Assembly: GCA_020137815.1 (NCBI GenBank)
Contig: CM035352.1
Span: 2,232,001-2,296,000 of the forward strand
DNA: 64,000 bases
Origin: Hormiphora californensis
Lineage: Eukaryota > Animalia > Ctenophora
Reading direction: 5' to 3'
Made by a program: the position numbers and the translations under genes. The notes under the pieces are model-generated. The model was not told where the DNA came from and did not search any database. It worked only from the letters and a program-made list of their open reading frames with translations. This document shows, in pieces, positions 1-55,271 of this stretch (its first letter is position 1; each line of letters begins with the position of its first letter).

Positions 1-3000
1 CTGACTTCTTAAAATACACCTTGATAACACCCTTAGAGAGACCCTGCATCTTCTCCTGGCTCCGTGTGATGTGTCTCTGGAGCAGGGTGAACCAGTGGAC
101 TCTGCTGACCTTGGAAGGGAAACTGAATATCACTCTGTGTAGGAGTTCATCGTCAACCGCAAAACCAATCCAAGTTGCCAGGAAGGCATTCTCAGGTCTC
201 TCAATGTGTTTGAATCCCGTACTATCTTTATACTCGCTGATACACATTTGTTTTAGTTTGACAACCCTCACAATTCTCATACTCCTGCCACGGACCTTGC
301 TGAAGATGAGCAACTGATCGAAAAGAAGGAGTTGGTATGTGTGGACCTCTGTTTCCCATCTCACTTTCACCTTTCCAATACTGTTCACATAATAGTCGGA
401 AGCATGGGTTGCTTTGGCAGCGTCCGGCCGTGGTGGTTTCACCCCTGTCAGAATGTTTACATGTTCTTCCTTCTTCAGGGCGTTCAAAATGTCTGGAGTT
501 AGTTCTGAGGCGTCATATTGATGGCCGCCTAACTCGAATTTCTCACTTGTAGTCGAGGTAGATGAGGTGGATGAGCGGTGATGATTGTTATTATTATTGG
601 ATCCACCGATCAGATCTGCAGATGTCCTGGATCGGTTAAAACTCTTCTTGATTTCCTTTCGTTTCCACCGTTTTCCCGTATCAGGTTCCTCGTGAAGAAG
701 TTTGATAAAGGTCGAGAATTCTCCTCCTGCAATATCTCCAAGCATTCCTTCAATCCGCCGGTATTCGTCAACCTGCAGTGTGCAATTAGTAAACCAAGTT
801 GGCTTCGTGTAGGGGTGACTGCGTCACCAATAAACCAAGCTACTCTCGGGATTCTCAAACCAGTAAGTAAACACAAACTCTAAATGATTTGCACCACCTA
901 GAATAACTGCATACCTCTCTCCGTCGGATAAGATCAGTGTAACTGTCAGGTAGGTTTTTTCCCCCCCCTTTTCTTGCTGCAAAAACCAAAATCGGGTTAA
1001 AATTAAATTGCTTGAGGGATTTTTCTAGAAACGCCTCAAAGAATTCTTTGTACCGTCGTAATCTTTCAATCTGAATGAAGGAGAAAATGGGAAAGTGAGA
1101 GGATTAAGAAAAAAATAAAAAGGAGAAGAGAGAGAAGAGAGAGAGGGGGAAGAAGGGGAAGGGGGGGCCCGAGGGGGGGGGAAGAGGGGAGGGGCCCCCC
1201 TTTTTTTTTGTTTTTTTTTTTTTCCCCCTTTTTTCCCTGTTTTTTTTTTTTTTTGCCCCCCCAGAAGACCTACAAAAAATTTTTTAATTCGGGGGTTCGT
1301 TATTTTTTCAACGATTGAGACAATTTTAAAATTTAAAATATTTTTCTCAAGGGTTGCAAAGGTTTTGAATAGACAGCACGCTAGGTTGGAATCGTAAGAG
1401 AGACCTGCGGGGAAACACGGGGGAAAAAAACCCCGGGGGAAGTCCGGGTTAAATGGCAATTGTTGGGTACCAAGCATAAAAATAAATGGGGGGGGGGCGG
1501 ACTCTAATAAAAGGGTCTCTTTGCCTACAAACCCAAAGAGGGTTTTAGGTCTAAACCAGTTTTATATTAGTCCCCCCGATTTAAGTGGTATCCAAAAAGG
1601 GGGGGAAAAAATGGACAAAGGGTCCCACAAATGGATCAAAAATTTTATTTTATTTGGAAAAAAATTTGCCATAAATTGCAAAAAAACGGGGGGCCAAAAA
1701 AGGCGGTCCACTGTGTTTTGTAAGTTTTAATCTTTAAAACCCCCACTAACTTTGAAATGAATTCCAAAGGATATTTATTTTTTGAAAGGGGAATAGCGGC
1801 AAATCTAAAACGTTATTTTTTTGTTATCAATAAATTTGTTGATTGTTATTGAAAACCTTTTTTATTGCCCTAAAATAGCACTGGATGGGGATGATACGGC
1901 AGTTTTCAAACAAACAACCGATTCTCTAAATTTGTATGGAATTTCCTTTCTCCTTTCTTCCTCTTCTCTCCTCTCCTTTTCCCTTTTTCACTCACCGGCA
2001 GAAAATTTAATTTTTAAAAAGAATTTTTTGGGTCCCCCCTTTTTGGAGGGGGGGCCGGAAATTTAACCTTTTTTTTTTTTTTGAAAATGCCTGGGGGGTA
2101 ACGAAAATTTTAAATCAATGGAGTAATAAAAATCTTCTTAGTCAACTCCCCTTTCAGAAAAATGTGGGTTTATTTAAAGAAAAAAAAAAAAAAGTAAATC
2201 GGGGAAACTAGAAAAAAGTTTTAAAACATTTTATTCTAAAAATGTCGAAAATTGAAGGAAATTAACCCACGGGCCTTCCCTTTTTACTCTTCTACAATAC
2301 CAATTACCTTTGGGTACCCAGTCCGGGATTTTGGGTTGTTAAACTAACCCCCTAAAAAAAACGGATATTAATTAAATTGTTGTTAAATCGCCTTTTTTAA
2401 AACCCGTATTCCTATTTTCCACAAACAATTGAAGATTTTTAAAAAGGGTTTGCCCCCGCTTCCCATAAATCTTGTTGGTTTTTTTTTTTTTGGAAAACGT
2501 GCCCTATGGTTTTAAGTATAAATAAAGGGTATTAGGGGGGTAATGCAAAAAGGGCAATCCTTCGAGAAATCAATATTTTTTTTTTTTAACCCCTTTGTGG
2601 TCAAAAGAAAAAAAAGGACAAATAGTTTTTTAAAAAAACCAAAACCCCTTTTTTAAAGTTTAAAATTTTTCTTTACGCTTTTCAATTAGTGGGAAAAAAT
2701 ATTGTACATAAAGATAAAACGAGATCCGGGTACGGGTACGGGGGATAAGCAACCCAAAAGACTCATGTTGGTGCTGCCGTACCCACTTTAAAATTAAATT
2801 TTAGCCTCGCAGAGAGAGAAAAGGAGAGAAAAAAAAGAGGAAAAAAAGGAGAGAGGGAAGAGAGAGAGAAAGGGGAAAAGAAAAGAAACCCCCTTTTGGG
2901 GGGTTTTCCTTTCCCCCAAAATTTCCCCCCCCTTTTCCCCTTTTTGCTTCTTCTCCTTTCTCTCCTCTCCCTCCCCCTCTTTTTTCCCCTTTTCCTCCCT

Positions 3001-6000
3001 TGTCCCTTTCCTCGCTCTCCTCCTTTCTTCCCCTTTTTTTCCCCCCCCCCACCCCCCTTTCCCCCCTTTTTCCCCCTCCCCCTCCCCTTTTTTCCCCCTT
3101 TTCCCCCCCCCCCCCGCCCCCGGGCCCGGGGGCCCCCCCCCTTTTCCCCGCCCCCCGGGGCCCCCCCCCCCTTTTCCCCCCCGGGGGAAAAAAAGGGGGG
3201 GGGGGGCCCCCAAAACCCCCCCCCCTTTTTTTTCCCTTTTTTTCCTTAAGCTTCCCCCTTTCTTTGGGGGGGGCCCCCAAGGCAAAAATTTAAAAAGAAA
3301 TTTTCAAAAAACCCCCCAAAGGGGGGGAAAAAAACCCCTTTTAAAGGAGTTTCACTAAAGGGTGGTATTTTAAAAGGCGGTTTAAAAACCAAAAACCCCC
3401 GGGAAATAAATTTAAAATTAACCCCCCCTTTATAATTTGGAATTTTTAAAAAGGGTCAAAAGACCGCTTTAAAACCCCCGGGGGGGGGGGAAAAAAAAGA
3501 AAAAAAGGGGAAAAGAGGAAAGGGGGAAAAAAAAGGGGGAAAATGAAAATTGGAAAAAGGAAAGGGGGAAAAGGGGAAAGTTGCAGGGTTTCCCCTTTTT
3601 TCCCCTTTTTCCCCCCCCCCCCCCAAAAAATCCAAAAAAAAGGGGGGAAAATACCCTTAAAACCCGGGAATCCTTAAAACCCGGGGTTTTCCCCCCTTCT
3701 TTAAACCCCCCAAAATTCGTCCATTTTTACAACCCCAATTAAATAAAAAAGGGGTAGAAAAGGCCTTTTACTAGGACCCCCGGTTTCCACGCCCTTCAAA
3801 AAAACCCAAAAAAAATTTTTTTCCCCACCCCCTTTTTTTTTTTTGGGGTTTTTCACCCCTTGGGGCCCTTTCTTGCCGCCCCTTTCCCTTCCCTCTTTTT
3901 CCCCCCTCTTCTCCCTTTTTCCCCAAAACCCTTTTTGGTTTAAAAAATTTTTTTAAATTAAAATTTTCTGGAGTTTTAACGTTCTCAATTAAAAATTTTT
4001 TTAAAAATTTTTTTTAAAAGAAAAAGGTCCAAAATAAAATGTAAGCTTTTAAATTTTTAAGTGAAAAAAAGAGGGTTTTTTTATTTAAAATTCCCCCTTT
4101 TTTGCCCCATATTTTGTAAAAAATTAAACCCCCTTTTTTTAAAATAATTTTTCCCCCCCTTTTTCCCTTTTAAAATTTTCCCCCCCTTTTTTTAAAATTA
4201 AAAAAAAATTTATCTAAAAGGGGAAAAAGGGGTACCCCCACCCCAAGTTTTTTCAAAGTAAGGAAACGTTCTAAGATAAAAGGATACCAAAAGAAAAAAA
4301 ATGGCCGGAAAAGGGTTTAAATATAAAAAATGGGAATTTGGGAATAAAAGAAAAGAAAAGGGGGAAAGGGGGGGGGAAAGAAAGAGGGGAAAAGGGGGAA
4401 AAAAATGGGGGTTAAAAAAAGGGGTAGAAAAGGAAAAAAAAAGGGGAAAAAAAGGGGAAAACCGGGGGAAAAAACCCCCCCCCAAAAATCCAAATTAAAA
4501 AAAATTAAAATTCTTAAAAAAAAAACGGGAAAATTTTAAAAAGGGGGCCCCCCCAAAAAAAAAAAAAAAAGGGGGGGGCAAAAAAAAAAAAACCTGCCTT
4601 TTTGGGGGAAATGCTTTTAAAAATTTTAAAGGGGTTTTTTAAAGTTTAACTCTTTTTTTTTTCTTTTTTTGGTTTTCACTATCACTATCTCGGCATGTTT
4701 ATGAGCAATACTTCTCTCACCTTCATGTACTTATAGACACTCACATGCGGAAACAGCTGCTAGAGCGAGAGATCAATCAAAAAAGAGAAAAGTTACTGCT
4801 TAGATCCATCTCTCCTTAGTCCAACGAGATATTTGTCACACTTTTTAGTAAAATGATGACAAGAAAGTGTACAATAATACATACATGCACAGGTGCTCAA
4901 AAAGCGTGTGGGGAAGGAAATTAAGTTACCCTGGCAACTTCAGAGTCCCATACTCTAACCACAGCCAGAAATAGCGTTATACACGCGGCAAAGAATGTAT
5001 TCATACTTCATACCCCATTGTATTAATACTTCATACCCCAATTCATGACTATCTATGTCAAGGGGTTGGAAGAAAGCTTTGGAGTTTTGGATAGTTGACA
5101 TAGTCAGCACATAGTTAAAAGAAGATGCGGTTAGAATGATCTCACCAAATAACCAATTGGTTATCATTGTACGACAACCGATTAACCGGAATGCAACATA
5201 TTTTCACCATGCAGCGACAACTAACTAACCGTAGTGCGGATTCGATGTTGATTGAAAAATATCCGTAGAGATCCCAAAACTCAGCGTTTTCCAAAAATAC
5301 ATCTCCTGAAAAAAAGAGGGATTATACCCGTTGTAGAGATGAGAGGTCCCCCTTTCTCTTTCTCTCTCCTGGGATGTTCTCTCACAGACTGTCGCAACCT
5401 CAGTAAGAGAAGGTGCACTGTTTTGACTCACCAACTTTTGAAGTTTCTTCACTCCAGTCGGTTAATCGTTTATCGAACTATAGCGGGAGAGAGAGAGAGG
5501 AATCAGATCAGACTATATAGAATTAGGAATTCAAGTTACTGCAGTCAACGTATCGCAACAAAGTTGTTGAGTAAAAGGGTGGTTGCACAAAAAAAAACAT
5601 TAAATGAACAAATATAAAAGTGTGAGTGAGACACGCACAAGACCATGGTTTGAAATGTGTTTCTGTTTTACAGGGGAAGCGAATCATTAATCAAATTATA
5701 TTTTACAGTGTTCAGGTTCTCCCATTTGTGAGCCCCTCTCTCTCGTAATCTCGATATCGTTATTTTGTGCTTTCCCTCCGTCTCACAACCCTCTCTTCCA
5801 TGACACCCTATCGCCCTTTCTCACTCTCACAATCTCTCTTATATTTCCCTCCCCTTCTTCTATTCCTCTGTATAATATCTCTCCCTCTCCAGTCTCCAGC
5901 CAGACAGGAAATAGAAATTGGTTGGTGATTCATGCGGGGGCGGGTCTGCGAGGCATCACCTTTCTACTGCTGCAGCAGTTGAGAGTGACATGAGAGATAC

Positions 6001-15604: not shown

Positions 15605-26559
<10,955 letters not shown>

Positions 26560-29030: not shown

Positions 29031-32000
29031 CTATTGTCCATAGCCGTTTCCCCATCCATTGCCCCACCCAGAGCCATATCCAGCAGCAGAGCCACCTCCA
29101 GCACCACCGGCACCTCCGGCACCACCGCTGAGTCCTCCGCCAAAACCGGCTCCGAAACCGTTTCCAGCTCCAGCACCGGCTCCGAAACCGTTTCCTGCTC
29201 CAGCACCGGCTCCGAATCCGTTTCCGGCTCCAGCACCGGCTCCGAATCCGTTTCCGGCTCCAGCTCCAGCACCAAGGGGAGCTCCGCCCATATTCACAGA
29301 GATGTTAGCTCCAAAACCGGGATTGGCACCACCAGCATTAGGGAATGCAGGGGCACCTCCGGCATTAGGGAAGTTAGGGGCACCTCCACCATTAGGGAAG
29401 TTAGGGGCTCCTCCACCGTTGGGGAAGTTAGGGGCACCTCCGCCGTTGGGGAAGTTAGGGGCACCTCCAGCATTAGGGAAGTTAGGGGCACCTCCACCGT
29501 TGGGGAAGTTAGGGGCACCTCCGCCGTTGGGGAAGTTAGGGGCACCTCCAGCATTGGGGAAGTTAGGGGCACCTCCGCCGTTGGGGAAGTTAGGGGCACC
29601 TCCGGCAGGGGCGGCACGAGGAGTGTTGGTCCTAATGTTAATGTTAAGACCACCAGCGGGGGCAGCTCCAGGGAAAGTGATAGCGGTGTTAGGGACCATT
29701 CGGCGTCCACCGTTCAGTCGGACAACACTGTATCCGGGCCTGCTCTTGGATGGCCTAATGTTGGACTGGGGAACGGTAACAAGAGTTCCAGAAATGGCAA
29801 CTGTAACCGCAGGGATAGGTGCTGCGGGGATCGAGCTCAGGGGAGATCTGATCGGGGACCGCATGAACACGGGAGATCTAATGGGAGAGCCAGGAAGGGA
29901 GTGCAGTGGTGAGTAGATGCAAAGTGGAGTTCCACTCTCACCTGGGCCACCTGGTCCTCCAGGACCTCCTGGGCCACCAGGTCCACCGGGTCCGCCAGGA
30001 CCTCCGGGGCCACCAGGTCCTCCGGGTCCACATGGAAGGAAGGCGTGAGGAGGCTGCAGACAAGCTGGGCACTTATCCGCGGGGGTATTGGGCTGAGGGC
30101 CACTGACAGTAACCTCAATGATAATAACAGTGGGACAGATTGGTCTTCGCTCTCCCTTGATCTTCACAGAGAATCCAGTCTTGGGGGCCTTCCTTGGTCG
30201 GAAGTTCCTTCCGGGAACAGTGAAAGAGGTTCCGGCAACGGTGATTGTGTAGAACTTCTGAGGGTAGATAGGGGTACCATTGACCACGAATAGTGGCCTA
30301 CTGTGTGGCGCTCCAGAAGGCTCGTTCATCATCGTTTTAGGGAGGACCACAATAGGTCGCTTGTCCCCAACGAGGGGATCGTAGTGAGGCTTCACTGACT
30401 TGTCTGGGTTGAAGAGGACGTAGAGAGGGAAGTGTCGAACACCCTTAGGTAGCAACACTCCTTTGAGGGAGTCAGGAAGAGACTTGGGTTTCGTTCCTGG
30501 GAAGATAAGTTTGTAAGGGCAATCATCTTCATCAGAACTGGAGTCAGAAGAAGTGTAGTCTGGATCAGAATCACCGGGAAGGCCACCTGGACCTCCTGGA
30601 CCTCCAGGACCACCTGGACCACCTGGACCTCCAGGGCCACCATTACGAGGATCATCATCGGGATCGGGGCCACCGGGACCTCCTGGGCCTCCAGGTCCAC
30701 CGGGACCGCCAGGTCCTCCAGGTCCACCGGGACCTCCACGGTTTTTGGGACTGTAGGGACAGTCTTCGGGACTATGAGGACCTCGGCCTCCAGGTCCACC
30801 TGGACCTCCTGGACCACCTGGACCTCCAGGACCACCAGGACCACCTTGTCGAGGATCGTCATTGGGATCTCTTGGTCCACCGGGTCCACCTGGGCCTCCG
30901 GGTCCACCTGGACCTCCAGGTCCACCACGTCGAGGATCGTCGTTGGGATCTTTTGGGCCTCCTGGACCTCCTGGCCCACCAGGACCTCCTGGACCACCTC
31001 GTCGAGGATCGTCGTTGGGATCTCTTGGTCCACCTGGGCCTCCGGGTCCACCGGGACCTCCTGGACCTCCAGGTCCACCTCGTCGAGGATCGTCGTTGGG
31101 ATCTCTTGGTCCACCTGGGCCTCCGGGTCCACCAGGACCTCCTGGACCACCGGGACCTCCTGGGCCACCACATCTCCTAGGGCAACGAGGACCTCCGGGA
31201 CCTCCAGGACCACCTGGTCCGCCTGGGCCTCCAGGACCACCAGGACCACCTCGTCGAGGATCATCGTTGGGATCTCTTGGTCCACCTGGGCCTCCGGGTC
31301 CACCAGGACCTCCTGGACCACCAGGACCACCTCGTCGAGGATCGTCGTTGGGATCCCTTGGTCCACCTGGGCCTCCGGGTCCACCAGGGACCTCCTGGAC
31401 CTCCAGGTACCACCTCGTCGAGGATCAGTCGTTAGGGATCTTTTGGTCCACCAGGACTGCCACACAACGGGCAGTCATGTTTGGGATCTTTGGGACCTCC
31501 AGGACCACCAGGTCCACCGGGACCTCCTGGACCTCCAGGACCACCCCTTCGAGGATCATCGTTGGGATCTCTTGGTCCACCTGGGCCTCCGGGTCCACCA
31601 GGACCTCCTGGACCACCAGGACCACCTCTTCGAGGATCATCGTTGGGATCTCTTGGTCCACCTGGGCCTCCAGGTCCGCCGGGACCACCTGGACCTCCGG
31701 GACCACCTCTTCGAGGATCATCCCTGGGATCTTTAGGACCTCCAGGTCCGCCGGGACCTCCGGGGCCACCGGGACCACCCCTTCGAGGATCATCTCTGGG
31801 ATCTTTTGGTCCGTCTGGGCCTCCAGGTCCGCCGGGACCACCTGGACCTCCAGGTCCACCGGGACCACCGGGTCCACCACAGAATGGACATCTGTGTTTT
31901 TTAGGTCCTCCAGGACCTCCTGGACCTCCTGGACCTCCTGGTCCTCCGGGACCTCCTGGTCCAGCAGGCTTTTTAGGCGATTCTGGCTTCTTTGGAGCTG

Positions 32001-35000
32001 CTGGTTTTATAGGGGATTCTGGTTTCTTTGGAGTAGCAGGAGCACGGTTTCTTGGGCTGTAAGGACAATACTCTGGACTGTGTGGAGTAGGTCCTCCAGG
32101 TCCCCCGGGACCTCCTGGGCCACCTGGACCTCCTGGTCCTCCGGGACCTCCTGGTCCAGCTGGCTTTTTGGGAGATTCAGGTTTCTTTGGAGCTGCTGGT
32201 TTTTTTGGAGATTCTGGCTTTTTTGCTGGAGCTTGTTTCCTTGGGCTGTAAGGACAGTCCTCTGGGCTGTGAGGAGCAAAAGGTCCTCCAGGTCCACCGG
32301 GACCTCCAGGACCTCCTGGCCCACCAGGACCTCCAGGACCACCTGGACCACCACGTCGAGGATCATCCTTAGGCTTTTTGGGGCCACCTGGACCTCCAGG
32401 TCCGCCTGGGCCTCCAGGTCCTCCGGGGCCTCCAGGTCCGCCCCGTCGAGGATCGTCTCTGGGATCTTTAGGACCACCTTTTCGAGGATCATCTCGGGGA
32501 TCTTTAGGACCTCCGGGTCCTCCTGGGCCTCCGGGTCCGCCTGGGCCTCCTGGTCCACCTGGGCCTCCAGGACCTCCACGGTTCTTAGGGCTGTAAGGAC
32601 AATCTTCGGGGCTGTGGGGCGCACGAGGGCCTCCAGGTCCCCCGGGACCACCTGGACCTCCTGGGCCACCGGGACCTCCAGGACCACCTCTTCGGGGATC
32701 ATCCCTGGGATCTTTAGGACCACCGCGTCGAGGATCGTCTCGGGGATCTTTAGGACCTCCAGGTCCGCCAGGACCACCTGGACCTCCTGGGCCACCGGGA
32801 CCTCCAGGACCACCTCTTCGGGGATCATCCCTGGGATCTTTAGGACCACCGCGTCGAGGATCGTCTCGGGGATCTTTAGGACCTCCAGGTCCGCCGGGGC
32901 CACCGGGACCTCCTGGGCCACCGGGACCTCCAGGACCACCTCTTCGGGGATCATCCCTGGGATCTTTAGGACCACCGCGTCGAGGATCGTCTCGGGGATC
33001 TTTAGGACCTCCAGGTCCGCCGGGGCCTCCAGGACCTCCGGGTCCACCTGGGCCTCCAGGACCACCACGGTTCTTAGGGCTGTAAGGGCAATCTTCGGGG
33101 CTGTGTGGGCCACGAGGACCACCTGGTCCTCCAGGTCCTCCGGGACCACCTGGACCTCCAGGTCCGCCGCGTCGAGGATCGTCTCTTGGATCTTTAGGAC
33201 CTCCAGGTCCGCCGGGACCACCTGGTCCACCGGGACCTCCAGGACCACCTCTTCGGGGATCATCCCTGGGATCTTTAGGACCACCTCTTCGAGGATCATC
33301 TCGGGGATCTTTAGGACCGCCAGGTCCGCCTGGGCCTCCAGGTCCACCTGGGCCTCCTGGTCCACCTGGACCTCCACGGTTCTTAGGGCTGTAAGGGCAA
33401 TCTTCAGGGCTGTGTGGGCCACGAGGACCGCCTGGTCCTCCTGGTCCTCCAGGTCCTCCGGGACCACCTGGACCTCCAGGTCCGCCGCGTCGAGGATCGT
33501 CTCTTGGATCTTTAGGACCTCCAGGTCCGCCGGGACCACCTGGTCCACCGGGACCTCCAGGACCACCTCTTCGGGGATCATCCCTGGGATCTTTAGGACC
33601 ACCTCTTCGAGGATCATCTCGGGGATCTTTAGGACCGCCAGGTCCGCCTGGGCCTCCAGGTCCACCTGGGCCTCCAGGACCTCCAGGTCCGCCGCGTCGA
33701 GGATCATCTCTGGGATCTTTAGGACCACCTGGACCTCCGGGTCCACCTGGGCCACCGGGACCTCCGGGACCACCTGGACCGCCACGGTTCTTTGGGCTGT
33801 AAGGACAATCTTCGGGGCTATGGAGGCCACCAGGTCCACCTGGGCCTCCAGGACCTCCGGGTCCACCTGGGCCTCCAGGACCTCCGGGTCCACCAGGACC
33901 TCCGGGACTGCTACCAGGACTCGACCAAGTTGGGGTACTAGAACCACTATCCGGGGCCTCAAATTCAATAGTAATTGGATTCAATGGGCTATTGGGACAA
34001 AGTGGATGATGGGTAAGCTTGCCGTTGACCGATATAATAAATCCATTTGGGTCAGGAGAACCCCCTGGGCCACCAGGTCCTCCGGGACCTCCTGGACCTC
34101 CGGGTCCACCACCATTTGGAGATTTCGGTTTCTTGGGGCTTTCGGGTTTCTTTGGGCCACCAGGTCCACCTGGACCTCCAGGTCCACCTGGACCTCCGGG
34201 TCCACCTGGGCCTCCAGGACCACCATGTCGTGGATCGACACACAGAGGGCAGTAGGGTCCGCCAGGGGCCTCCAGGTCCTCCAGGACCTCCTGGGCCACC
34301 GGGACCTCCTGGGCCACCATCTTTAGGAGATTCGGGTTTCTTTGGACCTCCTGGGCCTCCGGGTCCACCTGGGCCTCCAGGACCTCCGGGTCCACCAGGA
34401 CCACCATGTCGTGGATCGATACACAGAGGGCAGTAGGGTCCGCCGGGGCCTCCAGGTCCACCAGGACCTCCTGGGCCACCGGGACCTCCTGGGCCACCAT
34501 CTTTAGGAGATTCGGGTTTCTTTGGGCCACCAGGTCCACCTGGGCCTCCAGGACCTCCGGGTCCACCTGGGCCTCCAGGACCACCATGTCGTGGATCGAT
34601 ACACAGAGGACAGTATGGTCCGCCGGGGCCTCCTGGGCCACCGGGACCTCCTGGGCCTCCGGGACCTCCTGGACCACCATCTTTAGGAGATTCGGGTTTC
34701 TTTGGGCCACCAGGTCCACCTGGGCCTCCAGGACCTCCGGGTCCACCTGGGCCTCCAGGACCACCATGTCGTGGATCGACACACAGAGGGCAGTATGGTC
34801 CGCCGGGGCCTCCTGGGCCACCGGGACCTCCTGGGCCACCGGGACCTCCTGGACCACCATCTTTAGGAGATTCGGGTTTCTTTGGGCCACCAGGTCCACC
34901 TGGGCCTCCAGGACCTCCGGGTCCACCTGGGCCTCCAGGACCACCATGTCGTGGATCGACACACAGAGGGCAGTAGGGTCCGCCGGGGCCTCCAGGTCCT

Positions 35001-36426
35001 CCGGGACCTCCTGGTCCACCGGGACCTCCTGGGCCGCCATCTTTAGGAGATTCGGGTTTCTTTGGACCTCCTGGGCCTTCGGGACCACCAGGACCCCCAG
35101 GTCCACCTGGGCCTCCAGGACCACCTGGACCACCATATCTAGGATCAAGTAAAAGAGGACAGAAAATGCCGCCAGGACCCCCGGGTCCACCAGGACCTCC
35201 AGGTCCACCTGGACCTCCTGGGCCACCAGGACCCCCTGGACCACCAGGACCTCCTGGGCTACCTGGTCTGGTAGGATCACGACATTCAGGATAGTATGGA
35301 CAACCTCCTGGGCCTCCATCGCCTCCTGGGCCACCATCACCTCCCGGGCCACCATCACCTCCCGGGCCACCATCGCCTCCTGGGCCTCCATCGCCTCCAT
35401 CGCCTCCTGGGCCACCATCGCCTCCTGGGCCTCCATCGCCTCCATCGCCTCCGGGACCCCCTGGTCCACCGGGACCGCCCTCCTTGCTTGGCAGAGCTGG
35501 TCCGAAGCAGTATGGACATACAAGTCCAGTGGGGCTTGATGGCCTACTGTTCATTATTCCGCAGATAGGACAAAAGATAAGGTTGTTGGGGAGTGGTTCA
35601 GGTTGGTTGGCAGGGGAAGATGGACAATCCCTACAGTGGATTCCAGGGCTCCCGGGTGCACCGGGACAACCGTTATCAGCAACAGCTGGTCGAACGTTAG
35701 TTCCAAAGTATGTCCTTCCGAACAGCTTGACCGTTACTGTTCCGGGTGTCGGGTTGGGGCTGATATCCACTCCCATCACGTTCTGGTCACGACCGATCTC
35801 TGGGATAAAAACAATAAACAGAGTGGTTGGGTTGAGTGTCTGAGGCTGGCCCTGAGGACTGGCGAAGGGGTTCACCATGTTAAGAATGGGAGAGCCACCA
35901 GCAGGAGCCCGAGCGTTGGGGTTCACCATGTTGAGGCTGGGTCGGGCGTTAACATTAAGGTTAACATTTGGTGCGCCCATGCCGATAACAGGTCCGCCCA
36001 TAGCAGGAGCTCGAGCGTTGGGATTTGCCATGTTGAGGTTTGGTCGGGCGTTAACATTAAGGTTAACATTCGGTGCGCCCATGCCCACAGCAGGTCCGCC
36101 CATAGCAGGTCCACCCATGCCCATAGCAGGTCCACCCATGCCCATAGCAGGTCCACCCATGCCCATAGCAGGTCCACCCATGCCCATAGCAGGTCCACCC
36201 ATGCCCATTAGCAGGCTCCGCCACGAGCGTTGATACTGATGTTGGCACCTAGACCACCGCCTGCAGCTGCTCCTCGAGAAGCGTTAGCCGCGGCAGCCCC
36301 AAAGTTAGCTGCATTGCCCATAGCACCCGATCGGGCGCCCATTGCCGCGTTAGACATGGCTCCGTTTCCGGAGCCGAATGCTGCATTTGCAGCTCCCCCG
36401 TTGAAGTTCCCGTAATTATATGCCAT
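29031..36426 (-). CDS. Giant (Gly-Gly-Pro)n / CxxC modular structural protein, ~2,460 aa, intronless CDS
   Basis: Four ORF segments join into one frame of 7389 nt after removing 7 single-base insertions (36216, 36209, 34264, 31434, 31427, 31409, 31386), each visible as a deviation from neighbouring repeat units. Upstream acceptor at 36456-36457, ATG 36426, stop 29031, AATAAA downstream. Spacer variants are synonymous on this strand. Confidence 0.85.
34223..35123 (-). repeat. 180-bp higher-order coding repeat, five units
   Basis: Anchor ccatgtcgtggatcga at 34223, 34404, 34584, 34764, 34944; unit = YCPLC(V/I)DPRH(GGP)7 KKPESPKD(GGP)7, 60 aa. Confidence 0.9.
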
Positions 36427-41582: not shown

Positions 41583-42757
41583 ATGAATGTTACAGAATAC
41601 TCGGATGTGTACTCGGATTGGGAAAGTGTTACTTTCTCCATTGCCATCACCATTGGCACAATATTGGGTGAGTTAAATTGGTAACCATGGTAACCATGGT
41701 GAGTTACGGGTTAAAACAATTCGGATCGCTGCCAGGTTGATCTTTTTTCATTCCTAAACCTCCAATTACCCAAAATACATTGTTTCAGGTGTTGTTGGCA
41801 ATATCTTCCTCCTTTTTGTATCCAGGAGATATGATGTATTTGCCATTGACTACGTGACAGTCCATCTCATCCAGCAGCTTGCAATAGCGGATCTGATCTT
41901 CATTTTCATTTTCCTGATCCCCATCCTTGTGACTCACATCACCCGGAAGTGGGTTTTCGGACGGACAATCTGCTTTGTTTCCGGTATGATGGTTTCAATC
42001 CCTGCGTGTGCTAACATCAACTTTGTCCTCGCGGTATCCCTCCACAGATACGGGAGGTGCCGGTATCCCCTCTCCATTGGATGGCTGGATCGCAACAGAG
42101 TCCCCTTCGTCTCCTCCGCTCTCTGGCTCTACTCCAGCATATTCACTCTCTACGTCCTCCTCTCCCCCGAAACTGTGGAGTTCTTCCCTGGGTTGGCCGC
42201 TTGCCAGTTCAGTTTTGATATCTCCTACTTTAACTTTCTAGCCATCACGGCAACCACCCTGGTTCCCTTCGTAGTGATCACAACGATAAACATCGCTCTG
42301 TGGGTTCACGTTAGGGAGATACTCCGGAAGTCACACTTCCAAGTCCTACCAGGCCCTTCTCATAACCTCCTCCCTGACAGCATTTTTCATCCTGTGCTGG
42401 GCTCCCACCGTCGTTCCGTTTTATGTTCTCCTGCGGTGGTGGGAGAGGCAGGAGTGCCGAGACTGCCTTGAGAAGCTGCGTTATGTGTACTTTATAGGTG
42501 TGTGTGGGAATCCAATCCTGTACACCGCGGTCAGTGGACATTTCCGGCTCTTTGTACGGAACTTTATCAAGCTCTTATTGTTTGGAGATCACACGGTCAT
42601 CGAGCAACCACCACGGGATGTCCCACCACCACCATCCTCTAACAGGAGATTTGCCCGGCGTGCCAGTAGCAAGTGGCTCTCACTGGAGCACATTGACACC
42701 GTACCAAAAACTCCAATACGGGCTTACACGCCACGAGTTAGGGCATGTAGCACTTAG
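41583..42757 (+). CDS. Class A (rhodopsin-like) GPCR, 2 exons, with apparent indel errors
   Basis: Exons 41583-41667 and 41789-42757; N-glycosylation site NVT, TM1 GN, TM2 LAIADL, WVFG..C, TM3 SLHRY, TM6 CWAP, TM7 GNPILY. Frame change near 42338, plus probable mutually compensating insertions at ~42415-42462. Confidence 0.85.
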
Positions 42758-44969: not shown

Positions 44970-46105
44970 GTAATACAACAAGATTTGCCAATAGTTAGGA
45001 ATTACTACTATTATATACCGCAAGATTGATCGTAATGAAAATTGCAATTTACGAGTGCAGCAGTTCCACTTTATTAGAGCGTTTACCTGCCTGCTCTTTT
45101 ATACTTAGGATCGTAATTTACCTAACGCATCATGAAAATTGGCATTCTTTATGCTGAATGTAAATTTAGAAGAGCATTTAAATTATGTGCTATGGAGGAT
45201 AAATGACAAGAATAATCTTATTTTTTTCGGCTTTCAAAGTACAATATCTAAATGCTCAAGAGCACTTTTTAAATAAAAGTTGTTTTCCTGAAATTTTTTT
45301 TGATACATTGTATCTTTGCGGAAATGAATGTAAATCGAAAGCAATTATGCGTTTCAAGATAGGCTACTTCTGAGCTGTGTTTGGTTCGTGTTGTTTACCT
45401 ATTTACCCGAGATATACATCATCATAGGCACATTTTTATGTTGCATTTTGTGACTTAAGTCACAAAGTTAATATAATGTGAGTCCACTTGTGTTCAGGGT
45501 TGCATTATTTAACTATTCATTGTTCATAATGCACACACTGTGACACATGTCATTGTTACACATACAACAACAGAAGAAAAGAATTGAAGTACTTTGGGTA
45601 GTTAGAGGTATACAACATAACGAGAGGATATTATATAATTATCCACCGGCCATTTGGGTAGTGGGTTCTTAAATGCCTATAATGCATTCTTGATTCTCTA
45701 ATGCTAAATTCATAATATAATACTGTTTGGTTTCCACTCCCTTATTTTCTTAAGTTAAAATTAGAGCTTGAACTTGTTCGGAAATCATTCCTTTTTTTCA
45801 TTAACTATTTGTCAATGAAGCTTCACTTTCCTCACTCTGTTTGAGATAATGTGTGTAATTATTGTCTGAGGCGTGTAATTAGCGACTGAGTAATTATTGT
45901 TATTCCTATTTTTTAAGAACAACGCTCGAAATCGTGGCGTTTAATCGTTGCTATAATTGACGTTTTAGACGAATCAGAAATTACTTCTGATTCTTTGCCT
46001 TTTACATTGAAGATGCATTGACTTAACATATTTCCTTATAAAAGGCAGTGTTGAAAATTAATATGAGTATATCTATGGCAATTATTCCCCTTATATCCCT
46101 AGAAC

Positions 46106-47092
46106 ATGATGCTGAATGTTACTGGGATTAACGATTCTGAGATCATCTACGCCCGCTACAACGCTGTCCCCTGGGAGGGTTACATTTGGTTCACACTGCT
46201 AACAACGGGGAACGTCTGTGGAATTATCGGCAATGCCCTTGTTATATACTGCTCAATGGAGTACGGCTCCTTCAAGATGGATGGTGCAACTATCGCCTTC
46301 GTCCGACAAATAGCCATAAGTGATATTCTGTTTATCCTGATTTACTCCGTCCCCATTGCCCTGACACACCTTTTTCGTCGGTGGGTGTTGGGCGGGTTGG
46401 TCTGCTTGATTCTCGGCCATGGGGTGACAGTGCCCGTTATGGCGAGTATAAACTTCATCCTGGCCGTATCCCTCCACCGGTATCTCCGGTGCAAATATCC
46501 AATCTCAGTTCGGGAAATTACCGCCACGAAGGCAACTCAGATCTCCATAGCCATTTGGTTGTTCTCCCTCGCCCTGGCGATTTATAACATAGCGAGTGGT
46601 AAAAGTGTTGAGTTCAATGGGAAGCTGGCCGCCTGTACATTCCATTTTGGACATTCCACCTACAACGTCGTGGTTATGATTCTATTGACACTGTTCCCCT
46701 TTATCGCCATAACTGTCATCAACATTATCCTATGGGTCTACGTCACAAACCTACTCAAACAACACTCTGGGAGCCCCACAGGACGGTCCAATGTGGCGCT
46801 ACTGACCACAGCCGCCGTTACAGGTCTCTTTTGGATATCATGGAGTGCCACCGTTGTGAGGTTTCATTACTCAGCCATAGTAGACGAACATGATGTGTCC
46901 GTGGGTATGGAGAAAGCAAGGTATTTGTACATGTTGGGAGCCTATGGGAATCCTCTTATTTACACCATGGTCAACCATGGGTTTAGGGACTTTATCAGGA
47001 ACTTGTTGAAGAGGATTTACACCAAATATATGCCGTTTGTTAAGGTCAGGAAGAATACAGTGAATATTGGGCAACAAAATAGTATTGCATAG
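46106..47092 (+). CDS. Class A (rhodopsin-like) GPCR, intronless, 328 aa
   Basis: Seven hydrophobic segments; NVT/NDS glycosylation sites, GN, IAISDIL, WVLG..C, SLHRY, GNPLIY; clear paralog of 41583-42757. Confidence 0.93.
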   Translation: MMLNVTGINDSEIIYARYNAVPWEGYIWFTLLTTGNVCGIIGNALVIYCSMEYGSFKMDGATIAFVRQIAISDILFILIYSVPIALTHLFRRWVLGGLVCLILGHGVTVPVMASINFILAVSLHRYLRCKYPISVREITATKATQISIAIWLFSLALAIYNIASGKSVEFNGKLAACTFHFGHSTYNVVVMILLTLFPFIAITVINIILWVYVTNLLKQHSGSPTGRSNVALLTTAAVTGLFWISWSATVVRFHYSAIVDEHDVSVGMEKARYLYMLGAYGNPLIYTMVNHGFRDFIRNLLKRIYTKYMPFVKVRKNTVNIGQQNSIA

Positions 47093-48313: not shown

Positions 48314-48898
48314 TTGATGTTATTGTTCGAACTTCACCCTAATCCGTGTCTATGTCACCAAACCCTAATCCAGCACATCTTCAATGTGTTATTCATCCAG
48401 TGATGTGTGCAGTGTGCACTGTGCGACCACCCTGACCTGACACTCCATGGATGAGAGTGTGTTTTCATTGAACAAAAACAACACCTCCGTGTGTGATGCA
48501 GGGCAGGTAGTATCGTCACATCAGTTCTACATCATCGCATCAGCTTGGTAGAACAACAACATACACTATAGGCTTACACGTTGTCCGGAACTGCTCCCGA
48601 ACATATATCCTGTGTACTGTGCAGTAGTTGTTTCTAAGGAGTGAACTAAGAATATGATTTTTGGCAGCTTGTTTAGCATGTTTTATATTTATCGCTTCTT
48701 TCGAAATACAAATCAATGATTCCTTTTATGTCCCTTGAACCCCCATTTGGTCAAATTATACTGGTGACGGTGAGAGAGAGAGCAAGAGAGTACGTAACTA
48801 AAAAAGGGGTTCTCCCGTGTTTGCGGGTGTGCTTTGCTTTGTGCTGTCAATACATATATCTGCTACATCATTAAATGCGGCCTATCCAGTATCACGTG

Positions 48899-51354
48899 AT
48901 GGCCGGCCTCCGCAAGCAGGAGGAGTACAACTGGAAGGACTCTAATTTGGCCCTTTTTGGATCTGATGTTGAGAAGAAAGTGAAACTTGAATCTGCCCAG
49001 TCCGAGCCTGCATGGGCTAAATCTGGTTCGTACTGCCATGTCAATAATACACTTCTTCCTTGCTTTGATTTGTAATACTGCATTCAATTGTAATGTCACT
49101 GTCACGCCCGGTCCAGATAGGGCAGTCTTTTTGAGACAAACTTTGATACACGTGCAGGACGACTAATTCTTGTTTCTTTGCAGGCGAAAAGGTTGGCCTA
49201 GAGATCTGGCGGATAGTACAGTTTAAAGTAGTCCGATGGCCTGTTGATGACTATGGAAAGTTTTACGAGGGAGATTCTTACATCATTCTTAATACTTACA
49301 AGTAAATGAGAGAGGAAGATTGAGAAAGAGAGGGAGCTGGGAGAGAGAGATGGAGTAAATGAGCTTTGTAGTTTGTAAATAATCTTGCTTTGTCGGTAGA
49401 ATAATTAGCTCTCTTTAAACAATATCTCGGATTAGCTTCCTTTTCGTGTGCTACAAGCTACAACCGACACCGAGTCGCCTATTAATGGGATAGAATAGTG
49501 AAGTCAACTGATTCCCAGTGAATCAGAGTTTTCGCATAATCCTTGGGATATAATTCAGAATTAATTTCTGCAGGAGGGAGGATGAGGAAGGATTCCAGTA
49601 TGATGTTCATTTCTGGATTGGGAAGAACAGTACACAGGACGAATACGGAACCGCCGCTTATAAGACCGTAGAACTTGATACATTCCATCATGACAAGCCT
49701 ATCCAGCATAGAGAGGTTCGTTTTCGATAAAGATTCAAATACGAATCAAGAGTCCGGTAAATCGAGTTTTGACTTTAATTTCACCAAAATGCATTCTCCT
49801 ACAACAGGTTCAGATTTACGAGTCTCAGACATTCAAATCCTACTTCCCAGAGGGTATCAACTATTTGAAGGGTGGTGCGGAGAGTGGTTTCCGCCATGTC
49901 TCACCCACGGAGTACCAGCCTCGTCTTTTCCATGTCCATGGTAGGAGCATGGTTGGTGACACAGTCACCCCTAAACTACCAGCCGCGCGAACTGCGGCAA
50001 ACGAAGCCCACGAAGCATATTAGGTGATGGCATCACCAAGGTTTATGGTAGATTTTGGGCTTGTTAATCACCCCTTACTAAAAAATTTTGGGTAGTGATC
50101 TCCTAGTGTGTCATGTTTGTATTACTTTTGTATACTTTATAGTCTCCTGTGTGAGACCAAGGGGTTATATTTACCTCTAGGTTTCAAGGAGGTCACAAAT
50201 TACTGGTATTTGTATGTAGCAGCTGGCGTAGTCATTTAACCCTTAATTTTGCAGACATTAGTCATTTGCTCTAATATTTGGCTAGCTGACAAGCCTAGTT
50301 ATATTCCGCCAGGTGACACTGCTCAGAATACCGTCATAGAGGAGATGAGCCTGAAAAAGGGCAACATCAATGATGAAGATGTGTTCATCTTGGATGCGGG
50401 GCTCATTATTTACCAGATAAACGGGGAGAAATGTGACAAGGACGAAAAGGTAAAGATGAAGTTAATTCTACGTTCCACCGTTCGTTTTATATATGTTACA
50501 TCCCATTATGGCAGTCAGAACAAGTAAATGCGATTTGGGATCCTTAGGTATAATTTACATTAATTGTTAGGTCAAGGCCATGCAATTCGTGATAAAGATC
50601 AAAGAGGAAAGAAACGGAAAGGCGAAATCTTATGTCTATGATGGGGAAGTTCCTGACGAAGTTTATAGTGTGAGTTTAGTTGCTAAATGAGCAGAAATTA
50701 AAGGAAGATCTTGGTATTACATTTACAATTACAGTCGAAACCATAAAATATCTTGATCAAATGCTTTGTATCGATGATTGATGACAAAAACCTTCAGTTG
50801 CTCGAAGAGGGCGAGGGAGATGAGAAATCCTCAGCAGTGATTGAGAATGATACGAAACGGCTGATGAAGATTAGCGATCAAGACGGAGAGTTAAAGATGG
50901 AGAAGATAGCGGAGGGAGATGACGTCTCCAAGGATTTGTTGGACCCTAATGATGTCTTTCTGGTGGACGTTGGAACGCATCTCTATGTGTGGGTGGGAAA
51001 CGGTAAGAACTCACATCATAAGACCACAAAGTTCTTTTTTATACGGTTTTTCTCAGGAATTTGTGGTTAATGACACAAACCGTGTAACCATCCTATCACA
51101 AAATGTGACACATACGATTATAATTTTAATGACAGCATTCGCCTATCCTAAATAACAATTGTTTATAAAAAAGTGAGAGACAGTTACTTATAATAGCCAA
51201 TATACCCTTCATTATTACAGATGCCTCTCGAGACGAAAAGAAGAATGGAATGAGCTATGCGAGTAACTATCTAAATGGAGAGGATAGATTCCACTGCCCC
51301 ATCACTGTAGTCCTCCAGGAACAAGCTAAGGAATTGATCAATGATCTCATATAA
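48899..51354 (+). CDS. Three-domain gelsolin-like actin-severing protein (severin/fragmin type), 8 exons, ~364 aa
   Basis: Exons 48899-49025, 49184-49301, 49574-49715, 49808-49940, 50313-50449, 50571-50669, 50798-51002, 51221-51354 are phase-consistent (1095 nt). [65 protein letters not shown]. Confidence 0.94.
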
Positions 51355-52285: not shown

Positions 52286-52921
52286 TTTTTCTCAAAGTTC
52301 TTTCCACTTGTTCAAACTGAGTCGCATACACCAATTAACTTGGGTCAGGAGTTCAAAATTAGACCGAATTTATCAACTTTATATGTTTCTCTCTTCTCTC
52401 TCTCTTCTCTCTCTCTCCCTCTCTCCCTTGCCTGTGTGTCAGGGCGTGCATTTGTATGTTGTGAGTGGCCCTCAATTAACTGTCTCTCACTATTCCTGCC
52501 TTCTAGCGCACCCCCTCTGTCTCTTGTAGTGTCCGCAAGATTTAATGCCTGATTAGTTGCGCCCGGTAACTGCCGTACAATTCCGTCGCGGGCCAACTCA
52601 ACTACATATCGACAACCACTTATCACCATCACCACCGCGGAGAAGTTCCTGCAGCAGATTTGATCCAGAGTGATAATTGTGAAACTTCCTCATTTGTCAC
52701 CTCTTCTACCGGTTCTAATTATAAACTCCAGCTCCCTCTCTGTGTCTGTGTGTGGTTCTCCTATCTACTGCTTCTGCACCGGTAAACCACCCCACCACAA
52801 CTAACTGTGTGAAACTCAGTTCGCCAACTCGACATCTTGTAATTCTGTGTCATTTTTGTGTTCTAACAAAAGGTGAATTTCACTGGTACCAGCTAGTTAG
52901 CTATTGTCGCCCACACACGTC

Positions 52922-55271
52922 ATGCCCCTGGCATCTTTTAGCGAGACTGAGGAGAATATAGCAGAGGTAAGAAAGAAATGTGCCAATTTTGTTGCCAAGT
53001 CTTTCAACTTGTTGCCTGGGGCTAGTGGATCTGGTGGGGTGGTTAGCAGGGGCAGTTCATCCAACAATAGGCCTCCACCACCCAAACTCCGTACCATCCG
53101 ATTCAAATTGGATGGAAATATGAAGGGAGATAAACGTATCAGGTCGAAGAAGCCCGTCCATTTTGCTTCAAGCTCCGGCTCCTCAAACTCCCTCAATGCT
53201 CCCCGGCCCCCGCCTCGACAGAGACGGCGATCCTCAACTCAATTGCAGTGTGTTAAAATGGTTGAAGCGTGTTCTCCCATATCAAATGCAGATGGCAAAC
53301 ATATCACAGAAACTAAACCTTCCTTACCAGATACTACTCCAGATAGATCTGTAAAGAAGCCTCCTCAACCCTCAACCACCACTACTCAACGACCGGCTAT
53401 CAAGAAGCCGATTCCTCACAAAACTGCTAGGACAGTTAGCTCTGTGCCAGCCAAAGCGGCTCCTTTGGTGAGACCAAAAACACTAGATACATCGGGGAGG
53501 AATAACACACCCAGCAGTCGAAATGTGGCAGCTTGCAACTGCAGCTACTCTTCCCTCCCAACTCCTGACAGATTCATGTATTCAGCCAATAGTACACCCC
53601 TTGGGAGTATGGACTCCCTGAACCCTTTCTTTGCTGAAGACATCAGGAAATTTGCCCCCTTGGCTGTTTCTGCATTGATTACCAGTTCGGAATTCGTCAA
53701 GAAAACTGAAGCACTTGGTATCTCAGGTTCACTTTCATCCATCAACACAGATATGCTCATACGACCAGCCAGTTCAAACAATTCGCTACAACGGAATCGC
53801 CCTCAGCATGGTTTTTATAATGCATACAACACCAGACGAGGAAGTGCCCCGGTTGTGAGTACCCGGCCTGTTGCTCAACTCGTCAGCAGCAAGTTGACAT
53901 CCTACAAAGAAGATTCATCCTCTGACTACACCTCAGATACGGGTTCCTCTTCAACAGAGTTTGGCGATGAAGAAGATGACACTCAATACAGTATGATGTA
54001 CTCCAGAGACATGTCCCATCCCCTACCGCTCGTTGATGCGACCATTAACCTCCCCTTTGGAAAGAAGATCCATGATTCGTGGGAGAACTCTACCCCACTC
54101 CACGACAACTCTGTTGTGAGGGTCTGTAATGAGGAGTCCGTTGTCATAGAGATAGAACCAAATGATGAGGATGATCAACGAGGAGAGGACACAAAAACTC
54201 CCGATTCGAATGATCCTTACTTTGTGAGCATGGCGGACATAAAGCGTTCACGATCTATTGCAAAACTAACTGAGATGGAGCCCCTCAACAATCAAATGAA
54301 CTGTCTTTGTTGTACGTGCAGGGAGCCGAAAACTATGGTTCCCTTGTATTGTATTATGGGTATAGCGATTGTAATCACTTTCATTGTTATGATCGACATG
54401 TTACCAAAAGAGTAGCTTCAAGGGGAACAGGGAATTAGATACCGGCCCTGCTGGTAGGGTAAGTAATCGTCACCGGACATTTTGGTGTAGCTCCACAATT
54501 ATCATTTAGTTCCTTGATCTAAAACTTATCATCAAACAATTCATTCGCTTGTTTCCTATCTCTTGTTTCCTTCAGGCTGTTGCAGATATCAGGGAGAGAC
54601 GGGAACAGCAGGATCTTATGTTGAGCATTACGATGGGGAAAATAAAACAGGCGGACAAAAGAGTTAACGACTTAGAAGAGGTATTTGACTACACTATGTA
54701 TCTGACAGATAATCGTTAACACTAACTGATAACCCTAAGCTAAGGCCTAACCAGACCCTGCAAGCTCTTAAACTAATCATTTAAACCATTGTCATTTAAA
54801 CCATTGTCATTTAATCATTTAAACCACTAACATACACTGACTGTACAATGTACATCACGCAACCTCGCTCACGTAGCCGCACCGGGCCTTCGGCCCGGTG
54901 CGAAGAGGAGGGTCTTATATGAGACAATTAAACCAATGGTGTTTGTACTGTCCACTAAATGTGATTATTTTTATCAGGAGCAGGAACAACTGCAAAAGAA
55001 ACTAACGAGCTTAGAAGCGAAAATGATGGTAGGATTAGAAATTAGCTTCGCAATTCTTCGTGTGTTATTATTGCCAAGCTAGACTGTGTTTCGGGGTACA
55101 AATTAAGGGAGGGTTTATTAGAACATAAAGTGATATTATACATGATAGTTAGGACCATAGATTCACTAAACACCCGTTTCCCTCCCACAGGCACTACGAT
55201 CCGATCAAGAGGGAATGAACAAGTTAAACAAGACTCTAAAAGCAACTATAACTGGACTTGTTTCTACCTAA
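52922..55271 (+). CDS. Single-pass membrane protein: long disordered N-terminus, Cys cluster, TM helix, C-terminal coiled coil
   Basis: Large exon from ATG 52922; CLCCTC then VPLYCIMGIAIVITFIVMI. Removing one A at ~54406-54409 reads through to donor 54458 and phase-0 exons 54576-54680, 54978-55028, 55191-55271 (QADKRVNDLEEEQEQLQKKLTSLEAKM). Confidence 0.72.

Follow-up and report, generated by a model that had tools for sequence, protein, structure and literature searches.

Cysteine/histidine linkers of a predicted giant (Gly-Gly-Pro)n protein from the comb jelly Hormiphora californensis as candidate zinc staples

What might recurring pairs of cysteines do inside a chain that is built largely of glycine and proline? 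This question is raised by a 64,000-nucleotide stretch of the genome of the ctenophore Hormiphora californensis (GCA_020137815.1, contig CM035352.1, positions 2,232,001 to 2,296,000; hereafter the window, with coordinates counted from its first letter), which carries on its minus strand a gene for a giant (Gly-Gly-Pro)n protein, here termed the GGP protein. A sequence-only reading of the window had proposed that the CxxC and His motifs of this protein act as zinc clasps or redox-switchable disulfides, giving reversible cross-links at fixed distances along an elastic chain. The analysis reported here suggests that the GGP protein is likely an intracellular Gly/Pro-rich structural polymer forming a flexible chain, and its Cys/His linkers are predicted to bind zinc. 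The account we favor, at a little short of an even chance, is that zinc staples the chain, mostly linking neighbors within one chain as long as the protein is not densely packed. The gene, the repeat array at its center, and two frame breaks are located as follows.

29031-36426, minus strand: giant (Gly-Gly-Pro)n protein gene, with the ATG at 36426 and the frame end at 29031; apparently a single coding exon
34141-35125, no strand assigned: 180-bp tandem array of 5.4 copies with 91% matches; unit (GGP)7 - Cys/His linker - (GGP)7 - KKPESPKD
36209-36215, minus strand: N-terminal frame break, likely assembly insertions; the contig of sequencing run X6 ends at 36215 with two letters unaligned, a weak sign
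31388-31435, minus strand: frame break at which several bases are present that sister repeats do not have; likely an assembly error

The predicted GGP protein spans 2,449 positions, with X at three frame breaks, and has a mass of about 224 kDa. It is composed of 34.6% Gly and 23.9% Pro, with 40 Cys and a low, dispersed content of His (0.9%); in its core, Gly and Pro together reach 66%. A total of 47 GGP runs (median 21 aa) alternate with short charged linkers, and the pure tracts hold 3 to 9 triplets, with 6 to 8 in 40 of the 47 across different linker types. The termini are of low complexity and rich in Asn, Gly, and Tyr, while 30 RGG motifs were detected, arising at the junctions of DDPRR linkers with GGP runs. 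No Pfam family was matched at E ≤ 0.1 when the four open reading frame (ORF) pieces and two unique regions of the gene were searched. Upstream of the ATG are two in-frame stops, and neither a hydrophobic leader nor a signal peptide was found at the N terminus (best 10-residue mean 0.59). Collagen was considered as an identity for the protein and ruled out based on the tracts of just 3 to 9 triplets, the lack of a Pfam match, and the missing signal peptide. The gene itself is real, and it is probably expressed: its unique 3′ stretch was found, in whole or in part, in 20 of 24 public runs listed, 11 of which are recorded as RNA and which derive from 7 studies; part of the region encoding CPIC and CPYC (see below) was also covered by RNA contigs; and five of the six substitutions seen in other runs were silent.

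The frame breaks in this gene are likely assembly errors. At 1000-4600 of the window, 35% of the bases fall in homopolymer runs of at least five, resembling unpolished long-read sequence and pointing to an error-prone assembly. In the window, a single additional base near 34264 puts the fifth YCPLC unit of the array out of frame, and this base was absent from contigs of three runs: X1 (depth 339.5 of 598.9, three contigs), X2 (depth 90.6 of 167.8, five contigs), and X6 (depth 3,333 of 7,447, one contig), with counts and depths taken among the matches listed. This support is indirect, since sister copies of the unit naturally lack the base; however, the depth of the X6 contig was 3.7 to 5.1 times the single-copy depth (657 to 912), as would be expected if about all five copies were free of it. 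Stretches that contigs fail to cover (33900-34049 in X2 and X6, and the 5′ end in the RNA runs) were not counted as evidence. The Cys motifs are distributed over three ORF pieces of the window; reading them as a single chain requires that the frame breaks be errors. Separately, over 33900-34345 the same three runs yielded contigs of single-copy depth in which GGP-coding DNA is flanked by sequence that differs from this gene, a sign that the genome may contain additional GGP-repeat genes.

All of the CxxC and other Cys motifs that had been named by the sequence-only reading were recovered on the minus strand, and seven single-Cys linkers of the form H-x4-C were found in addition. Positions given for single motifs are those of the first Cys codon.

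34946-34975, minus strand: linker of unit 1, 10 aa, C-P-x-C-x-x-P-x-H
34766-34795, minus strand: linker of unit 2, 10 aa
34586-34615, minus strand: linker of unit 3, 10 aa
34406-34435, minus strand: linker of unit 4, 10 aa
34225-34254, minus strand: linker of unit 5, 10 aa, behind the extra base near 34264
35135-35164, minus strand: degenerate sixth copy, 10 aa, second Cys and His lost
35624-35635, minus strand: CRDC, with a His just before
35507-35572, minus strand: CPIC (35572)-x14-CPYC (35518), zinc-ribbon spacing; predicted intramolecular Cys4 site
35282-35302, minus strand: CPYYPEC (C-x5-C)
31879-31896, minus strand: HRCPFC(G), with CPFC at 31890
31462-31479, minus strand: HDCPLC(G), with CPLC at 31473
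31170-31184, minus strand: CPRRC (C-x3-C)
30030-30071, minus strand: CPAC, 14 aa, complete CX2CX4HX4C; residues 1 to 9 agree with the unit motif and with the homologous contig L001
30749-33822, minus strand: seven HSPE(D/Y)CPYSP linkers (H-x4-C) among (K/R)DP(R/N)DDPRR-GG linkers

The YCPLC(V/I)DPRH motifs are at 34972, 34792, 34612, 34432, and 34251, and the H-x4-C linkers start at 33822, 33414, 33105, 32616, 32271, 32082, and 30776, all on the minus strand. The 11 CxxC motifs exceed what composition would give, with a mean of 0.64 (maximum 4) in 2,000 shuffles of the whole protein and a mean of 1.05 (maximum 5) in 2,000 shuffles of the non-GGP residues; as a single repeated unit contributes five of the 11, about seven can be considered independent. 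The form CPxC is taken by 10 of the 11. His is likewise placed near Cys, with 18 of 22 His within five residues of one (shuffle mean 5, maximum 13, 1,000 shuffles), a count that is inflated by the repeats. The longer pattern CPxCxxPxH was found in the five units, at 30071, and in the homologous contig L001; its chance of recurrence is about 6 × 10−4 given a CxxC, as calculated after the pattern had been noticed. A complete CX2CX4HX4C is present at one of six window sites (30071), and the five units and L001 have CX2CX4H only. The spacing of the complete form is that of the gag knuckle and of the second site of IBR. No zf-CCHC match was obtained for any of four short peptides at E ≤ 10 (one rubredoxin-like row, E 0.029, was below the cut-off), while six of the nine Pfam rows for the CPIC/CPYC region were zinc-ribbon families (E 0.5 to 3.7), all below the cut-off. 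The terms "CCHC knuckle" and "zinc ribbon" are used here for these spacings and are confirmed by no profile match.

The spacing of the motifs was next compared with the idea of cross-links at fixed distances. Of five YCPLC units described at a 180-bp period, four are in frame at exactly 180 bp, while the fifth is 181 bp from the fourth because of the extra base and is in another frame. A CxxC every 60 aa holds for 4 of the 10 CxxC-to-CxxC spacings; the rest are 21, 18, 182, 787, 139, and 453 aa. Only the 180-bp array is periodic, and its five units are 87 to 98% identical in DNA, so that the 60-aa period is accounted for by recent tandem duplication and not by fixed distances as a design. Within units 1 to 4, 27 columns vary; 26 of them fall on third positions and are silent, and the remaining one is the V/I exchange. 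Most of these columns belong to GGP tracts, in which slippage may have played a part, and the pattern speaks for constraint at the protein level that is not specific to Cys. The 18 linker codons include just two variable columns, too few to show selection on Cys.

These properties of the array bear on whether the repeated CxxC has any role of its own, as the linker may have been carried along in a recent 180-bp expansion with number and spacing incidental. The near identity of the units, the degenerate sixth copy, the low variability of the linker, and the limited share of 60-aa spacings all fit such an origin. We nonetheless consider it quite improbable, because the five-position motif is found again 4 kb downstream and in L001, where the spacer residues are different, and because His is paired with Cys in several unrelated linker types.

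Conservation was examined using L001, the one homologous locus confirmed out of 142 pattern matches. In the C-terminal region beside the motif, 103 of 138 aa were identical between L001 and the window, while 38 of 53 four-fold sites differed, indicating that synonymous sites are saturated between the two. Over this distance the motif kept its C, P, C, P, and H, and all four x residues were changed. The GGP runs of L001 are 40 to 41 aa long. The proposal that Cys serve as metal ligands is in this way supported indirectly, by the CPxCxxPxH pattern kept in L001 and by the chemistry of CPxC peptides: CPVC alone, as a bare peptide, binds zinc as Zn(peptide)2 at a logK12 of 14.93, and Pro together with a hydrophobic residue stabilizes this complex, according to the accessible part of PMC5093744.

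How the sites would close depends on the number of ligands at each. The earlier notion that every CxxC is a lone half-site does not hold, as CPIC-x14-CPYC and CPAC-x4-H-x4-C own four ligands each and, judging by their spacing, likely fold alone; for the former, the zinc-ribbon spacing makes closure inside one chain the more likely outcome. With its His, each YCPLC unit may be a three-ligand site rather than a half-site. Such a unit would supply Cys2His and leave one position open, which could be completed by a neighboring unit, an H-x4-C linker, or another chain. The cytosol is reducing for thiols; in the absence of a signal peptide the thiols of the GGP protein are expected in this compartment, where zinc is favored over disulfides. 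A Gaussian-chain estimate, resting on our own assumptions, gave an effective concentration of 1.3 to 8.7 mM for neighboring units 56 residues apart, and a closed form favored 9- to 850-fold at 1 mM with free zinc assumed at 10 to 1,000 pM. By the same estimate, total CxxC would be 5 mM only once the protein is at 100 mg/ml. Because neighbors are at millimolar effective concentration, staples would mostly close loops of about 20 nm inside a chain; links between chains would become competitive only at about 100 mg/ml or more, a density such as that of a fiber or condensate. Staples that open under load could act as sacrificial bonds with hidden length.

Several findings weigh against zinc stapling. 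In L001 the motif is placed after the GGP runs, not before; the fourth Cys of CX2CX4HX4C is missing; and of the other window Cys in that region, one in DCPY is kept and three are not. Conservation in an ortholog, proposed earlier as a check on the Cys, was upheld at CPxCxxPxH, subject to these caveats. For the five-unit and N-terminal regions, none of 411 candidates (proteins of 259 to 2,000 aa) matched at E ≤ 1, leaving one CxxC site that can be checked in this way; among shorter proteins, 53 of 7,988 scored gave matches, with no GGP run above nine residues and an unrelated CxxC in one, and for lack of long GGP runs these were taken as compositional. The Cys codons of the array are no more constrained than other linker codons, and Cys2 and His are gone from one copy of the repeat. 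The start codon and 5′ end lie outside the RNA contig cover, so a spliced, secreted form is possible. Finally, the 30 RGG motifs also suit an RNA scaffold.

Zinc stapling was compared with known systems, starting from the two analogies drawn before. The likeness to the Rad50 zinc hook lies in CPxC with a hydrophobic third residue at most sites of the GGP protein, and in the dimerization of a minimal CPVC peptide on zinc (PMC5093744, as far as accessible). Beyond this chemistry the analogy breaks down: there is no coiled coil, and the five units lack Gly after the second Cys. In Rad50, each chain carries a single hook, with a β-hairpin, at the apex of a coiled coil, whereas the GGP protein has 11 CxxC and an extra His. 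The CxxC is flanked by (GGP)7, and the four ORF pieces match no Pfam family, instead of the ABC-ATPase and coiled-coil setting of Rad50. According to the same source, hairpin and coiled coil add about 6 log units to the zinc affinity of Rad50, and the GGP protein has neither. With CCHC knuckles, the GGP protein shares the exact spacing at 30071 and the first three ligands in the five units and L001; it differs in that the units and L001 lack the fourth ligand and in that H-x4-C stands apart, in seven linkers. Mussel byssal preCols are secreted collagens with terminal His-rich blocks and proposed reversible metal cross-links. A Gly/Pro-rich chain and such cross-links are what the two would have in common; in contrast, the GGP protein has mostly Cys ligands and no terminal His-rich blocks, and with no signal peptide and its sparse, dispersed His the byssus analogy was set aside.

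A more specific version of zinc stapling would be a ctenophore intracellular elastomer with a split zinc knuckle, in which C-x2-C-x4-H half-sites pair with H-x4-C half-sites from another block or chain, yielding a self-healing spring that would serve a structure specific to comb jellies, for instance the spiral filament of the colloblast or comb-plate linkers; we regard this as rather unlikely. To our knowledge, little is known of the structural proteins that underlie mechanics specific to ctenophores, and the animal elastomers known to us with metal or disulfide cross-links are secreted. If zinc stapling is true, a giant (GGP)n chain that stays inside the cell and is held by thiolate-zinc staples would represent a design different from that of secreted elastomers, and its unit of 60 residues lends itself readily to expression and testing. 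A comb-plate paper names two structural proteins (10.1101/2022.03.27.486007, accessible part). Identity with the comb-plate protein CTENO189, which it describes as carrying a metalloprotease and two death domains in 1,582 aa, was ruled out, as Pfam finds neither domain in the GGP protein. No such protein is described in the accessible parts of the colloblast and tentacle papers PMC6278862, 10.1101/2020.06.27.175059, and PMC13091417. Nor was it described elsewhere in the literature searched, which falls short of most subscription journals, and sequence searches of the Protein Data Bank (PDB) gave nothing significant.

The explanation that survives next best is hardening by disulfides, in an oxidizing compartment or after extrusion or death of the cell, as in the Cnidoin-minicollagen system. 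We judge this unlikely, though a serious contender. Cnidoin, an elastomer of the Hydra nematocyst, resembles the GGP protein in its Gly/Pro-rich repeats, its periodic Cys, and its origin in a non-bilaterian animal, and it is polymerized via disulfides; among the 40 Cys of the GGP protein, those of the seven single-Cys linkers could form inter-chain disulfides in the same manner. However, Cnidoin itself is a secreted protein of 403 aa with a signal peptide and a GxGQQ repeat (PMC4321713, in its accessible part), and when compared by this description no signal peptide, terminal minicollagen cysteine-rich domains (CRDs), or GxGQQ was seen in the GGP protein. In addition, the His five residues past the second Cys, which is kept in L001, is a feature of metal sites that disulfides do not need.

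The chain could alternatively be a scaffold for an RNA-binding condensate, similar to FET proteins, with RGG motifs, GGP tracts, and RNA-binding zinc knuckles in place of mechanical staples. EWS shows a comparable 10-residue GGP stretch, RGG motifs and a zinc finger, along with low-complexity ends (PMC12329705, in its accessible part); these are matched here by the 30 RGG motifs, the complete CX2CX4HX4C, and the Asn/Gly/Tyr-rich termini, and the weak fold matches of the C-terminal module described below include Sm/Hfq/LSm and Tudor barrels. Counter to this, no RRM or other Pfam family was detected; the GGP protein is about four times longer than FET proteins and has 47 GGP runs; the RGG motifs sit at DDPRR/GGP junctions where Asp neutralizes the charge (net 0 to +1); and fold matches this weak (best Z 4.2) are uninformative on function. 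An RNA scaffold thus appears improbable, if by no means far-fetched. The weakest alternative, that the GGP runs form a two-layer antiparallel polyproline-II bundle, with every second loop and hence the YCPLC linkers as a zinc row on one face, instead of an entropic spring, is very improbable: two-thirds-Gly sequences do form two-layer bundles with 96% of successive helices antiparallel (10.1101/2023.11.25.568672, accessible part), and the snow flea antifreeze protein shares two-thirds-Gly tracts of regular length with short Cys loops, like the 40 tracts of 6 to 8 triplets and the two 21-aa arms of each unit here; yet those bundles are small solved domains, the runs of L001 are far from this length at 40 to 41 aa, H-x4-C linkers recur after both odd and even loop counts, which is inconsistent with one face, and a single-sequence AlphaFold2 model of the repeat block had no such fold (pLDDT 39.7, uninformative).

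Apart from the linkers, the C-terminal region of the GGP protein was found to hold a small β-module in two copies.

30108-30302, minus strand: predicted small SH3-like β-barrel module, common to a family of unnamed proteins
29682-29807, minus strand: second, weaker copy of the β-module

The 65-residue module was predicted with pLDDT in the 70s to 80s and has a weak likeness to small SH3-like barrels (best VIA, Z 4.2); Foldseek gave no match at E ≤ 0.001, and the best ESM Atlas score for the region, 0.80, is a lead only. The C-terminal unique region has 11 representatives at E ≤ 0.001, 4 of them at 10−10 or better, and none of 10 that were looked up is named; P0019 and P0020 appear to be chance matches and were excluded from the alignments (six sequences in alignment A2). 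The module occurs twice in the GGP gene and in L001 and is weakly repeated several times in P0017 and P0018 (shuffled maximum 3.2 bits), and L001 is the only one of these relatives with GGP runs. At 29682-30302 (minus strand), the module of about 65 aa thus defines an unannotated protein family (P0011 to P0018 and P0021), which offers a way to trace orthologs of the GGP gene and the tissue in which it is used.

Further observations concern the remainder of the GGP gene and its surroundings. Ten KKPESP motifs and nine of the form S/T-P-x-K/R were noted at 31960-35062 (minus strand) as candidate sites for proline-directed kinases. Exons of a mitochondrial carrier gene (Mito_carr) are at 24509-26216 (plus strand), 3 kb from the GGP gene and on the opposite strand. 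Among exons near this carrier gene is an apparently intact LINE element (19311-23503, minus strand), with an ORF1 of 406 aa and an ORF2 of 1,011 aa that encodes an endonuclease and a reverse transcriptase. Two single-exon genes for rhodopsin-family G protein-coupled receptors are at 41758-42754 and 46103-47092 (both plus strand), the first split over two frames near 42300-42470, possibly by another assembly indel. A Ser-rich open frame of 504 aa with no Pfam match is at 52901-54415 (plus strand). A gelsolin-like gene in eight pieces was located at 48875-51351 (plus strand); its closest relatives cluster with Pleurobrachia bachei proteins, which places the DNA in a Pleurobrachia-like ctenophore, and by tblastn, with intron flanks included, 370 of 447 aligned residues were identical to P0003 and 256 of 387 to a Bolinopsis protein.

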